Positions 4,112 through 51,109 of a stretch of 64,000 bases of DNA are shown here, piece by piece. Where the stretch lies: the IMG/VR virus record IMGVR_UViG_3300020420_000008, positions 32,001 to 96,000 of that record. The stretch is one strand, 5' to 3'. The notes under the pieces were generated by a model. That model did not search any database, had not been told where the DNA came from, and was given only the letters and a program-made list of their open reading frames with translations. The number at the start of each line of letters is the position of its first letter. The first letter of the stretch is position 1. A program made the position numbers and the translations under genes. Source of the stretch: a virus.

Positions 4112-5168
4112 AGCACAAGCAACTGAAAATCCAGATGAGTTTTCTTTAAAAACAGTACAGAAACAAGGTGGTATCATGAATGATGATGGTACATATCGTG
4201 AGTCATTTGGTGGTACTGAACTGATGACTAAAGCTTTAGAGCAGTATGTTGATAAAGATTTATTAGAGCAATTTAATATAATTAAATCTAGAGTTCGTAC
4301 CGTATCTGAAGATAAACCAAATGTTCTTTGGTTGCACGATTTATGGAATGATCCAGAAAATGAACATCTAAAAGATGCAGAAGCAAGAAAGAGATTTTCA
4401 CGTTTAGTTTTTGTTTCTAATTGGCAACTAACGACATATCAGTTAGGTTTAGGTGTGCCTTATTCTGAATCATTTGTTCTTAAAAATGCTATCGATCCTA
4501 TACAGGTTCCAGGAAATGCAGACGGAACTTTGAATAAAGATAAAGACGTAATACGTTTAATTTATCATACAACACCTCACAGAGGATTAAACATTGCAGT
4601 TGCTGGTGTTCAAGCTTTATGGGAAAATGGCTATAAAGATAAAATACATTTTGATGTATACTCTTCTTTTGAAGCTTATGGTTGGCCCGAAAGAGATGAA
4701 CCATACAAAGATATTTTCAAGACTATAGAAGAACATGATGGTATGACATATCATGGTTTTCAACCTAACAATGTTGTTAGAGAGGCTTTAGGTAAAGCAC
4801 ACATCTTTGCATATCCTAGCATATGGCAAGAAACATCATGTATATCAGCTATTGAAGCTTTGTCTGGTGGTGTACAAGTAGTATGTCCTAATCTTGGTGC
4901 ATTACCTGAAACTACAGGCAACTTTGCAACAATGTATAACTTTCATGAAAATCTACAGTTTCATGCTAATGTATTTGCAAATTTTCTCAAAGGTGCAATA
5001 GATAATTGTCAAAGTGACGATATGCAAAAGAAAGCAATCTTCGCTAAAAATTGGTGTGATAATTTCTATAACTGGGAAATTCGTAAAAACGAATGGATAG
5101 GCATGTTCAATGGATTACTTCAAGTAGAAAAATCAAAGAAAGAACTTGCGAATGGAAAAGGAACCTGA
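4104..5168 (+). CDS. GT4-family (GT-B) glycosyltransferase
   Basis: GGTE N-terminal motif and YPSIWQETSCISAIEA (E-x7-E) motif. Confidence 0.85.
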   Translation: MAEAQATENPDEFSLKTVQKQGGIMNDDGTYRESFGGTELMTKALEQYVDKDLLEQFNIIKSRVRTVSEDKPNVLWLHDLWNDPENEHLKDAEARKRFSRLVFVSNWQLTTYQLGLGVPYSESFVLKNAIDPIQVPGNADGTLNKDKDVIRLIYHTTPHRGLNIAVAGVQALWENGYKDKIHFDVYSSFEAYGWPERDEPYKDIFKTIEEHDGMTYHGFQPNNVVREALGKAHIFAYPSIWQETSCISAIEALSGGVQVVCPNLGALPETTGNFATMYNFHENLQFHANVFANFLKGAIDNCQSDDMQKKAIFAKNWCDNFYNWEIRKNEWIGMFNGLLQVEKSKKELANGKGT

Positions 5169-7837: not shown

Positions 7838-8014
7838 TGTAGACTTACAAACTCACGCCGTTCTCAAAAGAGAAGTTAATAATGAAAAACTACCAAAAGA
7901 AGTGAAAGAATGGTTAGAAAAAAGAATTGAAGAATTAGAGTCTAAGAAGGAGACTTGACAAAACACTCTAATATGTGATATAAATAAAGATAGATAATTA
8001 AATAGAGTAATATA

Positions 8015-8878
8015 ATGATACTTTTGGACTTAAATCAGGTTATGATTAGTAACCTGATGATACAACTCCAAAATAACAATGACGAGATAGAAGAAGGTAT
8101 GGTACGTCATATGGTTCTTAATTCTATCCGGTTGTACAATGTTAAGTTTGGAGAAAAATATGGTGAGATGATAATCGCCTGTGATGATAAGAATTACTGG
8201 CGAAAGAGTATCTTTCCTTATTACAAAGCACACAGAAAAGCAGACAGAGAAAAATCACCATTAGATTGGAATAACATATTCAGTATTCTCAATAAAATAC
8301 GTGATGAACTCAAAGAAACATTTCCTTGGAAAGTTATACAAGTCGATACGGCAGAAGCAGATGATATTATAGCTACTATCTGTAATCGTTTTGGTAAGAC
8401 ACTCAAAGCTGAAGATGATATTGATATACTAATTATATCTGGTGATAAAGACTTTGCACAACTACAAAAGTATGCAAACGTAGAACAGTATTCACCAGTA
8501 ACTAAGAAGTGGATACGTATCAGTAATCCAGAGTCTTTCTTACGTGAACATATTATGAGAGGTGATAGAGGTGATGGTGTGCCTAACTTTCTATCGGCAG
8601 ATAATGTAATAGTTACAGGTGCTAGACAAAAACCTCTTGCATCGAAAAAGATAGAGAAATGGATAGGTTTAGATCCTAGAGATTTCTGCAATGAAGTGAT
8701 GTTAAGAAATTACAAGAGAAATGAATCTTTAGTCAATTTAGCTTTGATACCTTCAGCTATCGTCAATCAAGTAAATGAAAAGTATGATAATTATAAAATA
8801 CCCCCAAAAAGTGGACTACTTAACTATTTTATAAAGAATAGATTAAAGCTACTTATGGACAAAATTGGAGAATTTTAA
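8015..8878 (+). CDS. rnh: T4 RNase H (5'-3' exonuclease)
   Basis: YKAHR, EADDII, SGDKDFAQL and GDRGDGVPN motifs. Confidence 0.95.
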   Translation: MILLDLNQVMISNLMIQLQNNNDEIEEGMVRHMVLNSIRLYNVKFGEKYGEMIIACDDKNYWRKSIFPYYKAHRKADREKSPLDWNNIFSILNKIRDELKETFPWKVIQVDTAEADDIIATICNRFGKTLKAEDDIDILIISGDKDFAQLQKYANVEQYSPVTKKWIRISNPESFLREHIMRGDRGDGVPNFLSADNVIVTGARQKPLASKKIEKWIGLDPRDFCNEVMLRNYKRNESLVNLALIPSAIVNQVNEKYDNYKIPPKSGLLNYFIKNRLKLLMDKIGEF

Positions 8879-15754: not shown

Positions 15755-15772
15755 AATAAATAAAAAAAGTAC

Positions 15773-15804
15773 TTGACGAATCACGAATCAATATGCTATA
15801 AATA
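15773..15804 (+). promoter_or_regulatory. composite sigma70 and T4-late promoter of the RNA operon
   Basis: TTGACG at 15773, tandem CGAATCA at 15777-15790, TGCTATAAATA containing the T4 late TATAAATA at 15797-15804. Confidence 0.75.
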
Positions 15805-15807
15805 AAG

Positions 15808-16145
15808 AGTTCGTTGAGACTAAGATGAAACTAGACTGGACATGGGGGCGGTACCCATCACCTCCACCAAGAGTACTTGCTCAGTACAACGCCTTCGTAG
15901 CTTCACAAGAGACAGTTCTTGAGACAGTTCGATGAAGACAAGAGTGGTAAGACACTTTAGAGTTTTTTGATAGTGGCGTATCAACAAGTATTCCTGTGGG
16001 GGTGAAATAGGATCGACAGGTAGGTAGTAGGTTAGTGGAGAACATTAAACTAAATGCAAACGATGATTTTGCACCTGTGGATTACGCACTAGCGGCTTAA
16101 TCGCACCGAGTTTAGAGAGTGTACTTGGGAACAGAAACACTCTCA
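15808..16145 (+). ncRNA. ssrA: circularly permuted two-piece tmRNA (alphaproteobacterial type)
   Basis: Acceptor piece ends ...ATGGGGGCGGTACCCATCACCTCCACCA at 15869. Coding piece starts GGGGGTGAAATAGGATCGAC at 15998, giving G3-U70. Tag ORF 16056-16100 reads ANDDFAPVDYALAA*. Outer ends are approximate. Confidence 0.95.
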
Positions 16146-16153
16146 CAGAATTT

Positions 16154-16227
16154 GCGAGTGTAGTATAATGGCATTATTTCTAGTTACCAACTAGAAGACA
16201 GAGGTTCGAATCCTCTCATTCGCTCCA
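16154..16227 (+). tRNA. tRNA-Gly with anticodon ACC
   Basis: GCGAGTG/CATTCGC acceptor, U73 plus CCA, TCTAG-TTACCAA-CTAGA anticodon arm, AGAGG-TTCGAAT-CCTCT T arm. Confidence 0.9.
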
Positions 16228-16251
16228 AGTTTTACTCCGACGGGAGTAAAA

Positions 16252-16457
16252 GTGGTGCAAGGAAGAGTCCTGATGACAAGAGGGACAAACTTGACTACTT
16301 AGGGGTGGTACCCAGGATTTGAAAAACGAATACTTAGAAATAAGGGCTAGTTTAACAAGTTCACATCATCATACCAGATGAAAGTAGGTTCTGGCATAAA
16401 TGGAAGATATGCTATCTTGTGATGTCAGTTGAGGGTAAAAGCGAGTCCCTCCCACAC
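16252..16457 (+). ncRNA. structured ~200-nt ncRNA, probably manA-motif-like
   Basis: ORF-free, GC-richer, multiple helices (AACTTGAC/GTCAGTT, ACATCA/TGATGT, CCAGA/TCTGG, GCATA/TATGC, GAGGG/CCCTC); between the tRNA and a terminator; family assignment from memory only. Confidence 0.55.
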
Positions 16458-16464
16458 TAAATTT

Positions 16465-16500
16465 AAAAAGGTATTAGAAGCAGTTCTGATACCTTTTTTT
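16465..16500 (+). terminator. intrinsic terminator closing the RNA operon
   Basis: AAAAAGGTATTAGAA-GCAG-TTCTGATACCTTTTTTT hairpin with U tract. Confidence 0.85.
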
Positions 16501-50020: not shown

Positions 50021-51109
50021 ATGGCACTACAATCTTCAGGCGCAATATCAATCAAAAATGTACAAGACGAGTTTTCGCCTACAGGCGGAACAGGAGGCGC
50101 AGGAATAAAATTTAGTGAATACTATAGAAATGGTAGTATTATTGCCAGTGATGCAGTAGGAGGAAGTATACCTAATTCGGGTGCAATATCACTAAGTCAA
50201 TTTAGAGGTGCTATGGATTACTCAGAAGTAACAATCAGTGGTAATCATAACAATTCAAATCTTAGATCCTTAGCAAATGCCGCCGGTTTTAACGGAACTA
50301 ATCCAGTTCGTATAACAATAAATGCTGGATATTATTTAGCAACTACAACAAGCAATTATGGAATGAGAACAGGTTCTTTTCCTAGTGAATTAAAAGTAGA
50401 TAATTATGCTTACATTATGGGTAAAGGAGGAACAGGCGGACAGGCTCCTAGTGCAGGAGGTTCAGGTGGAGGACATGCTCTTCTTCTTGAAACAAATGTA
50501 ACACGATGGAATAACCTTAGTAACGGAACTTGTTCCGCCGGTGGAGGTGGAGGAGGTTCAGGTAGATATAACGATAGCGGTTCTGTTAGATCCGCCGCCG
50601 GTGGAGGTGGAGGTGCTGGAGGTGGTGATGGCGGACGTGCCGCCGGTGGTGGATTTGTTGGTGGTGGTGCAGGTAGTAATTCTGGAGGAGGCTCAGGTAG
50701 TACTGGTAGTATTGCACACTCGGCGGCAGGAAGTGCTGAAGGTAGTAATATTGCAGGACGTGGTGGTACAGCTGGTGGAGGAGGAGGCGGCTGGGGCCGA
50801 GATCAAAATAAAGGTAATACAACGAGAACGACAGCAGGCTCCGGTGGCGGAGGTGGAAGAGCATTTCCTGGAACTGGTGGCGGTGGTGGTAGTAATCCTG
50901 GCTTTGCAAATCCTGGAGGTGGTGGAGGAAGTTCTACTGGTGGAGGCGGGGGTGGCTCCACTCATACCGGCGGTGGTGGCGGTGGTTGGGGTTCTTCTGG
51001 TGGTGGCGCCGGTGGAGGCGGCGGTGGTGGCGGTGGTAGAGCCGTACATCGAAACGGAAGAAGTATTTCACACAACAACAATAGATTTCATGGATCAATA
51101 GCAGGATAA
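50021..51109 (+). CDS. glycine-rich fibre-tip adhesin (gp38-like architecture)
   Basis: MALQSSGAIS N-terminus plus many poly-Gly motifs; directly after the fibre gene. Confidence 0.7.
   Translation: MALQSSGAISIKNVQDEFSPTGGTGGAGIKFSEYYRNGSIIASDAVGGSIPNSGAISLSQFRGAMDYSEVTISGNHNNSNLRSLANAAGFNGTNPVRITINAGYYLATTTSNYGMRTGSFPSELKVDNYAYIMGKGGTGGQAPSAGGSGGGHALLLETNVTRWNNLSNGTCSAGGGGGGSGRYNDSGSVRSAAGGGGGAGGGDGGRAAGGGFVGGGAGSNSGGGSGSTGSIAHSAAGSAEGSNIAGRGGTAGGGGGGWGRDQNKGNTTRTTAGSGGGGGRAFPGTGGGGGSNPGFANPGGGGGSSTGGGGGGSTHTGGGGGGWGSSGGGAGGGGGGGGGRAVHRNGRSISHNNNRFHGSIAG

Follow-up and report, generated by a model that had tools for sequence, protein, structure and literature searches.

The window analysed here is a 64-kb stretch of a 146,609-bp virus record, the whole of which is labelled G000; because the two ends of G000 map side by side, to adjacent positions, in the relative G015, the record appears to be essentially complete. 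The sole tRNA gene of G000, a tRNA-Gly with the anticodon ACC, lies in the window within an array of RNA genes whose order is promoter, tmRNA, tRNA-Gly(ACC), manA RNA and strong terminator:

15773..15804, plus strand: putative promoter, TTGACG, an 18-nt spacer and TATAAA overlapping a T4-type late-promoter motif, TATAAATA (sequence)
15770..16145, plus strand: permuted two-piece tmRNA of the alphaproteobacterial type (ARAGORN permuted-tmRNA call; Rfam alpha_tmRNA and tmRNA_permuted)
16154..16227, plus strand: tRNA-Gly(ACC), 74 nt, CCA encoded (ARAGORN and Rfam RF00005)
16186..16188, plus strand: anticodon ACC (A34 C35 C36) in the loop U32 U33 A C C A37 A38 (sequence and ARAGORN)
16233..16460, plus strand: manA RNA motif (RF01745), last of the three operon RNAs (Rfam score 68 bits, gathering score 55.2)
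16465..16498, plus strand: intrinsic terminator, a long hairpin and T-run, with another TATAAATA motif after it (sequence)

The tRNA gene is spaced 8 nt 3' of the tmRNA match and 5 nt 5' of the manA RNA. The tmRNA scored 89.1 bits with the Rfam alpha_tmRNA model and 85.3 bits with tmRNA_permuted, and ARAGORN gave the permuted molecule a span of 15777–16191; its acceptor piece has its CCA end at 15869, and the tag frame at 16056–16100 reads ANDDFAPVDYALAA and then a stop. Its homologue in Methylophilales phage Melnitz is annotated as SsrA, and the TTGACG-18-TATAAATA promoter is kept in Melnitz as well as in 10/10 aligned relatives. Because a simple sigma-70 scan did not list 15773–15804 among its matches, we only infer promoter function at this position. 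The neighbours of the locus are PhoH and a PD-(D/E)XK nuclease, followed by a cell-wall hydrolase, gp33, gp59 and gp32. The homologous two-piece tmRNA and the same neighbour genes indicate that the source phage, a marine T4-like phage, is a relative of Melnitz and the pelagimyophages. The Melnitz ssrA locus (PMC9004378) resembles the window in its two-piece tmRNA, its promoter motifs and its PhoH/PD-(D/E)XK nuclease/gp33/gp59/gp32 neighbourhood, but has a glutamine-riboswitch aptamer after the tmRNA where the window has tRNA-Gly(ACC) and manA RNA. Among the relatives, the slot 3' of the tmRNA is filled in three ways:

tRNA and manA RNA: the window and six contigs
manA RNA alone: L025, L047, L029, L058 and L060
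glutamine-riboswitch aptamer: Melnitz, L006 and L043

In an alignment of the relatives the tRNA coincides with a clean indel of approximately 80 nt, and both presence and absence are found in both sublineages; the tRNA-Gly(ACC) is therefore an accessory, strain-variable cassette. The manA RNA follows the tmRNA in relatives both with and without the tRNA, and its appearance in these phages is that of a free-standing RNA rather than a 5'-UTR riboswitch. The manA RNA of the window (16233–16460) is the last element of the operon, with the terminator rather than a gene coming next. The operon widens the picture of modular RNA operons, made up of tmRNA, tRNA and manA RNA or a glutamine aptamer, in SAR11/OM43 myophages. 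In one contig, L017, the intervening segment that separates the two parts of a permuted phage tmRNA gene itself contains a tRNA-Arg(TCT), at 4705–4781. The arrangement of the operon raises the question of whether the tRNA fold might serve mainly as an RNase P/RNase Z cutting signal that parts the coding piece of the tmRNA from the manA RNA, with no adaptor role. The short spacings of 8 and 5 nt within one promoter-to-terminator unit, together with the tRNA-Arg(TCT) within the tmRNA of L017, would fit such a role, but relatives in which the manA RNA directly follows the tmRNA manage without the tRNA, and a mere cutting signal needs neither an invariant loop, nor a glycine identity set, nor an encoded CCA. 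We therefore consider this explanation quite improbable.

The tRNA gene itself is genuine and conserved. A preliminary description, made from the sequence alone, had reported an intact cloverleaf with glycine identity elements and the anticodon ACC, and each of these points was borne out: ARAGORN called tRNA-Gly(acc) at 16154–16227 on the plus strand, the full RF00005 model was matched at 60.7 bits (gathering score 29; E 6e-12), and a thermodynamic fold recovered the acceptor, anticodon and T arms, with z = −2.95 against shuffled sequences. The raw sequence has the loop UUACCAA, with ACC at 16186–16188 as in the ARAGORN call, and an encoded CCA. As in an elongator tRNA, the canonical G18G19 and the T-loop UUCGAAU are present and the score exceeds the RF00005 threshold. 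G1–C72, C2–G71, G3–C70, U73, C35 and C36, all visible in the sequence and in the ARAGORN drawing, make up the complete identity set for glycyl-tRNA synthetase (GlyRS), and the acceptor elements are those of Pelagibacter tRNA-Gly genes. The anticodon is the exception, since instead of the GCC, UCC or CCC of bacterial-type tRNA-Gly, ACC was found in 7/7 assemblies.

These assemblies bear on whether ACC is an artefact of sequencing or assembly, or the gene a pseudogene in decay; for the former, the preliminary description had proposed that relatives be inspected for TCC or GCC. Using a pattern for the tmRNA acceptor piece we collected 62 related IMG/VR contigs, of which 5/62 carried the window tRNA, each time with the anticodon ACC. 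When IMG/VR was scanned with position 34 and the anticodon stem left free, only those same five contigs had a window-type tRNA, and the same scan of metagenome contigs returned L066 (= L018) together with a further ACC copy, L070, from a Tara assembly. Four additional metagenome matches obtained with position 34 free were rejected as unrelated tRNA-Gly(CCC) genes, which had the D arm alone in common with the window tRNA. The window-type tRNA with ACC is thus present in six other independent assemblies (L013, L018 (= L066), L041, L042, L048 and L070). Three sequence variants occur among the seven assemblies, and they differ only at pairs 28–42 and 30–40 and at positions 26/44. Pair 28–42 is C–G or U–A and pair 30–40 is A–U or G–C, so that pairing is compensated in all three variants, and the seven anticodon-loop bases and the acceptor, D and T arms are identical throughout. 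As relatives in independent assemblies carry ACC, an assembly error is refuted, and with compensatory stem changes and no disruptive ones, error and decay taken together have a likelihood close to nil.

The nearest annotated tRNA is a T4-like phage tRNA-Gly(UCC), with 76.2% identity by BLAST and 88% mean column identity in a pairwise alignment; overall, the best non-ACC relatives of the window tRNA are 78–80% identical to it. The T4-type tRNA-Gly(UCC), for example that of Shigella phage vB_SdyM_006 (MK295204), shares with the window tRNA the D arm AGUAUAAUGG, a length of 74–75 nt, a 4-nt variable loop, U73 and an encoded CCA; the window tRNA differs from it in having A34 rather than U34, in the T-stem pair A51–U63 and in its location in a tmRNA operon rather than a tRNA cluster. 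When IMG/VR was searched with a pattern of the T4-type D arm and T arm, the loop UUUCCAA was found in at least 120 contigs and UUACCAA in 8 contigs. The window tRNA belongs to a T4-type phage tRNA-Gly lineage in which UCC is the norm. Three additional ACC contigs recovered by this pattern represent two other sequence types, one of which, the ACC tRNA of L223, shares 88% identity with a UCC tRNA but only 76% with the window tRNA. As the L223 tRNA is closer to a UCC tRNA than to that of the window, ACC must have arisen at least twice within the lineage. No close relative of any ACC tRNA was found among the isolated-phage genomes of INPHARED.

tRNA-Gly(ACC) has been listed as universally missing, phages included (PMC8007984), and hypotheses have been built on its absence from all domains of life (PMC8007984, PMC4928997). 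The window tRNA is a natural, conserved tRNA of this type. With more than one origin in one phage lineage, it is a direct test object, and it bears on unmodified A34 in the glycine box, on sparing by TadA and on cellular avoidance of this anticodon.

Our preferred reading, to which we assign a probability of roughly one half, is that the window tRNA is a glycine-charged adaptor with an unmodified A34 that adds to the supply for GGU. The steps that we infer for its transcription, charging, modification state, decoding role and host would run as follows. Selection would maintain a T4-type phage tRNA-Gly with A at position 34; one promoter would give a joint transcript of the two-piece tmRNA, tRNA-Gly(ACC) and manA RNA, from which host tRNA-processing enzymes would cut the tRNA, and bacterial GlyRS would charge it with glycine. 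A34 would stay unmodified and would read GGU by a Watson–Crick pair and GGC and GGG weakly, so that the tRNA would provide extra glycyl-tRNA for the dominant glycine codon of the phage, GGU, which in the presumed SAR11-type host would be covered only by G:U wobble of tRNA-Gly(GCC). The cassette would be helpful but not essential, and in Mom-bearing sister strains the extra Gly-tRNA may feed, or offset, a DNA modification that consumes glycyl-tRNA.

Charging is to be expected because no known bacterial GlyRS determinant is missing, and a human tRNA-Gly altered to ACC can still be glycylated (PMC4928997). In E. coli, tRNA-Gly(ACC) decoded GGU strongly and the other glycine codons weakly (Boren et al. 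1993, as summarized in PMC11066159). These engineered ACC tRNAs, bacterial and human, have the same anticodon as the window tRNA, and the accounts given in PMC11066159 and PMC4928997 describe possible glycylation, nil or slight deamination, and a best reading of GGU with some of GGC/GGG; they are laboratory mutants, whereas the window tRNA is a natural conserved gene. A natural parallel is the tRNA-Thr(AGU) of Mycoplasma, which according to the account in PMC11066159 has an unmodified A34 and, like the window tRNA, serves a four-codon box; it belongs, however, to a minimal cellular set in which one tRNA reads several codons, whereas the presumed host of the window phage already has tRNA-Gly with GCC and UCC.

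The state of A34 separates this reading from one in which host TadA or another deaminase would convert A34 to inosine, so that GGU, GGC and GGA would be read by one phage tRNA. The presumed host has tRNA-Arg(ACG) and therefore presumably TadA, and the window tRNA, like bacterial tRNA-Arg(ACG), has a gene-encoded A34, with loop positions 33–35 and 37–38 (U33, A34, C35, A37 and A38) identical to those of Pelagibacter. However, the TadA-substrate loop is C32 U33 A34 C35 G36 A37 A38, seen as CUACGAA in Pelagibacter tRNA-Arg; that of the window tRNA is UUACCAA, with U at 32 and C at 36 where the substrate has C and G, and its identity is that of glycine. In E. coli the specificity of TadA for the tRNA-Arg2 loop is high: only 3/15 A34 anticodon variants are deaminated, and single changes at 32, 37 or 38 block the reaction (PMC11066159); eukaryotic ADAT barely deaminates tRNA-Gly(ACC) (PMC4928997). 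A search of G000 for TadA-like genes of the cytidine/adenosine-deaminase fold with two families (PF00383 and PF14437) gave no match. Since the loop departs from the TadA substrate at 32 and 36 and the phage appears to lack a deaminase, A34 is probably unmodified, and an inosine decoder seems very unlikely. An unmodified A34 would read GGU by Watson–Crick pairing, and the tRNA would therefore supply the dominant glycine codon.

That GGT is dominant, as claimed in the preliminary description, was confirmed by counting glycine codons in 146 ORFs of G000, which gave GGT 2027 (60%), GGA 890, GGC 410 and GGG 68; GGT makes up 4.5% of all codons and is the 4th commonest codon. Its share is approximately 65% of glycine codons in the two largest Gly-rich structural ORFs and 46% (54/117) in the most Gly-rich ORF. 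A 362-aa ORF in the window at 50021–51109 is 32% glycine (GGT 54, GGA 41, GGC 21) and probably encodes a collagen-like fibre protein. The host is presumed to be of the SAR11 type; a search of genome contigs with the exact tmRNA pattern gave no match, and Pelagibacter HTCC8051, reached via a SAR11 16S probe, was used as a stand-in host only. In the sample from this stand-in, GGT accounts for 46% of glycine codons and 2.7% of all codons, and among 30/33 tRNA matches its only tRNA-Gly genes are UCC and GCC.

The further suggestion in the preliminary description, that this is a codon-matched tRNA for late Gly-rich proteins, remains the best-supported reading, albeit weakly. In its favour are the GGT share of 60% against 46% in Pelagibacter and a comparison of 671 orthologous glycine sites, at which GGT was present in G000 alone at 81 and in the tRNA-less relative G007 alone at 54 (p 0.025), while five control codon families gave 301:298, all within one lineage contrast. 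On the other hand, close relatives that lack the tRNA have an almost identical operon and resemble G000 in GGT use, and tRNA-bearing strains differ strongly from one another in GGT/GGC: G005 and L048, both with the tRNA, are much richer in GGT than G000 at shared glycine sites (54:19), mostly through GGC/GGT changes, with controls balanced. This GGC/GGT shift between tRNA-bearing strains is glycine-specific and larger than the contrast between G000 and G007, and it clouds the codon test. In the comparison of G000 with the near-identical strain G005 (L380, L381), G000 had GGC and G005 had GGT at 36 orthologous sites and the reverse held at 12, the other four-fold families being balanced.

Phage tRNAs are known to substitute for host tRNAs that anticodon nucleases have cleaved, and the preliminary description had offered escape from such nucleases as a second explanation; in a broader form, the A34 variant would resist, or act as a decoy for, a host nuclease or toxin that targets tRNA-Gly. 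We know of no anticodon nuclease that acts on tRNA-Gly, and nothing found in the window bears on escape from one. Gly-tRNA(Gly) is also the target of GNAT-fold toxins such as TacT (cited in PMC13219725), which, with tRNA-replacing phages in general, lend the idea some background. Against it, the neighbouring ORFs examined include no defence or anti-defence gene beside the tRNA, and UCC is the norm in the same phage tRNA lineage. Defence evasion is accordingly very improbable.

The affinity of the tRNA for EF-Tu was estimated with an additive T-stem model (PMC3239215, Table 2). The T stem of the window tRNA (A49–U65, G50–C64, A51–U63) gives a predicted binding of −9.5 kcal/mol, outside the range expected of a tight EF-Tu T stem: the Pelagibacter tRNA-Gly genes are predicted at −10.6 and −11.0 kcal/mol, bacterial tRNA-Gly have a mean of −10.8 to −11.0 kcal/mol (PMC3239215), and the window tRNA is predicted to bind 1.1–1.5 kcal/mol more weakly than its cellular and Pelagibacter counterparts. 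The same predicted affinity, −9.5, applies to the staphylococcal non-proteogenic tRNA-Gly (PMC3239215, PMC7826273). The weak T stem was considered as a sign of a non-ribosomal role, but this was dropped, as in a control 34 distinct phage T4-type tRNA-Gly(UCC) averaged an equal −9.5 (sd 0.78). Because of this average, the weak T stem is a trait of the phage lineage and not peculiar to the ACC tRNA. Unlike tRNA-Gly that avoid the ribosome (PMC7826273), the window tRNA has a canonical elbow; the marks of a non-proteogenic tRNA-Gly, namely a degenerate elbow in which G18G19 or the T-loop consensus is lost and a transferase partner, were not found in G000, partners having been sought among Mom and two general GNAT acetyltransferase families.

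A different use of glycyl-tRNA is suggested by the Mom DNA-modification system. Mom takes Gly-tRNA(Gly) as co-substrate and modifies adenine in DNA with its glycine, and it accepts all E. coli tRNA-Gly isoacceptors (PMC13219725). The tRNA could thus serve mainly to supply or buffer Gly-tRNA(Gly) for a phage Mom that converts DNA adenine to N6-carbamoylmethyl-adenine, being an orphan in the Mom-less G000 or serving an unrecognized transferase there. In G000 there was no match to the Mom family PF25680 or to the Mom protein of L048, nor to the two general GNAT acetyltransferase families PF00583 and PF13508. The sister contig L048, from a strain 98–99% identical, which has the same operon and tRNA family and orthologous proteins at 98% identity, carries at L048:586–1356 a 256-aa Mom-family gene (Pfam Mom, 184 bits), 7.4 kb upstream of the tRNA and before a T4 RNase H homologue. 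The corresponding region of the window is as follows:

7838..8014, no strand assigned: empty site of the Mom cassette (junction alignment against L048)
8015–8878: T4 RNase H homologue, after the empty Mom site

Comparison of window 7838–8014 with L048 431–1401 delimits a strain-variable Mom cassette, inserted with a small ORF on one side and the promoter of the T4 RNase H homologue on the other. The tRNA-less relatives G007 and G008 likewise have an empty syntenic site, and Mom proteins 88–100% identical to that of L048 occur in at least eight IMG/VR contigs.

Several further observations tie the window tRNA and its relatives to Mom. A Mom-bearing contig, L384, shares an end-to-end overlap of 106 nt (98%) with the tRNA-bearing contig G005, which comes from the same sample; the independent ACC lineage of L223 (record G003) has Mom on its 36-kb contig; and among close relatives covering both sites there was no case of Mom without the tRNA. 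The 148-kb relative G015, which is Mom-positive, has a tRNA-Gly-like gene. Homologues of the L048 Mom were examined at 80 IMG/VR loci, where tRNA-Gly was the commonest tRNA (19/90); at 12 of the loci, which comprise at least four tRNA sequence types, it lay 7–29 nt from Mom:

L327, 4791–4864
L240, 3263–3336
L289, 4830–4903
L410, 8809–8882
L413–L417
L423, 9817–9890
L443, 3091–3164
L445, 3758–3831

The linkage of Mom and tRNA-Gly in marine phages is real and touches the clade of the window phage. The window phage resembles the Mom-linked marine T4-like phages in that a sister strain has Mom, but its weak T stem is one that ordinary phage tRNA-Gly(UCC) share; a Mom-coupled tRNA-Gly would have Mom in the same genome and usually adjacent to it, but the window genome has no Mom, and even in L048, which has both, the two lie 7.4 kb apart. 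G000 is essentially complete by the mapping of its ends and its syntenic site is cleanly empty, so Mom cannot be the reason why this genome keeps the tRNA. At the level of contigs the association is weak, Mom being found on 2/9 ACC contigs against 1/48 UCC contigs (p 0.06), and Mom was present on none of 25 other tmRNA contigs. Nor does the linkage explain the ACC anticodon, because the 19 Mom-adjacent phage tRNA-Gly are mostly UCC (16 UCC, 2 GCC and 1 ACC). Every E. coli tRNA-Gly isoacceptor suits Mom (PMC13219725). Together with the canonical elbow, these points make supply of Mom unlikely as the main function of the tRNA. The partial link nevertheless offers a handle on whether phage tRNA-Gly pays for a DNA modification that consumes glycyl-tRNA.

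The GGU adaptor that we prefer could also be combined with a supply to Mom. On this wider proposal, which we offer tentatively and regard as doubtful in its entirety, the window tRNA would be the first natural, selectively maintained tRNA-Gly(ACC), marine T4-like phages would have broken the ban on A34 in tRNA-Gly repeatedly, and the tRNA would have a dual purpose. If this is true, a tRNA with unmodified A34 reads GGU by Watson–Crick pairing and also feeds a strain-variable Mom cassette, and the evolution of the tRNA is loosely coupled to that of the DNA-modification system.

Two kinds of tRNA-Gly or tRNA-Gly-like gene found in association with Mom are unusual in sequence. That of G015 (G015:C1:99978–100047; L352 1498–1570, minus strand) has a 6-base anticodon loop, UUCCAA, as if position 34 had been deleted, and ARAGORN cannot name its anticodon. 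The GCC-type tRNA-Gly of L443 and L445 has the non-canonical T loop AGCGUAA.
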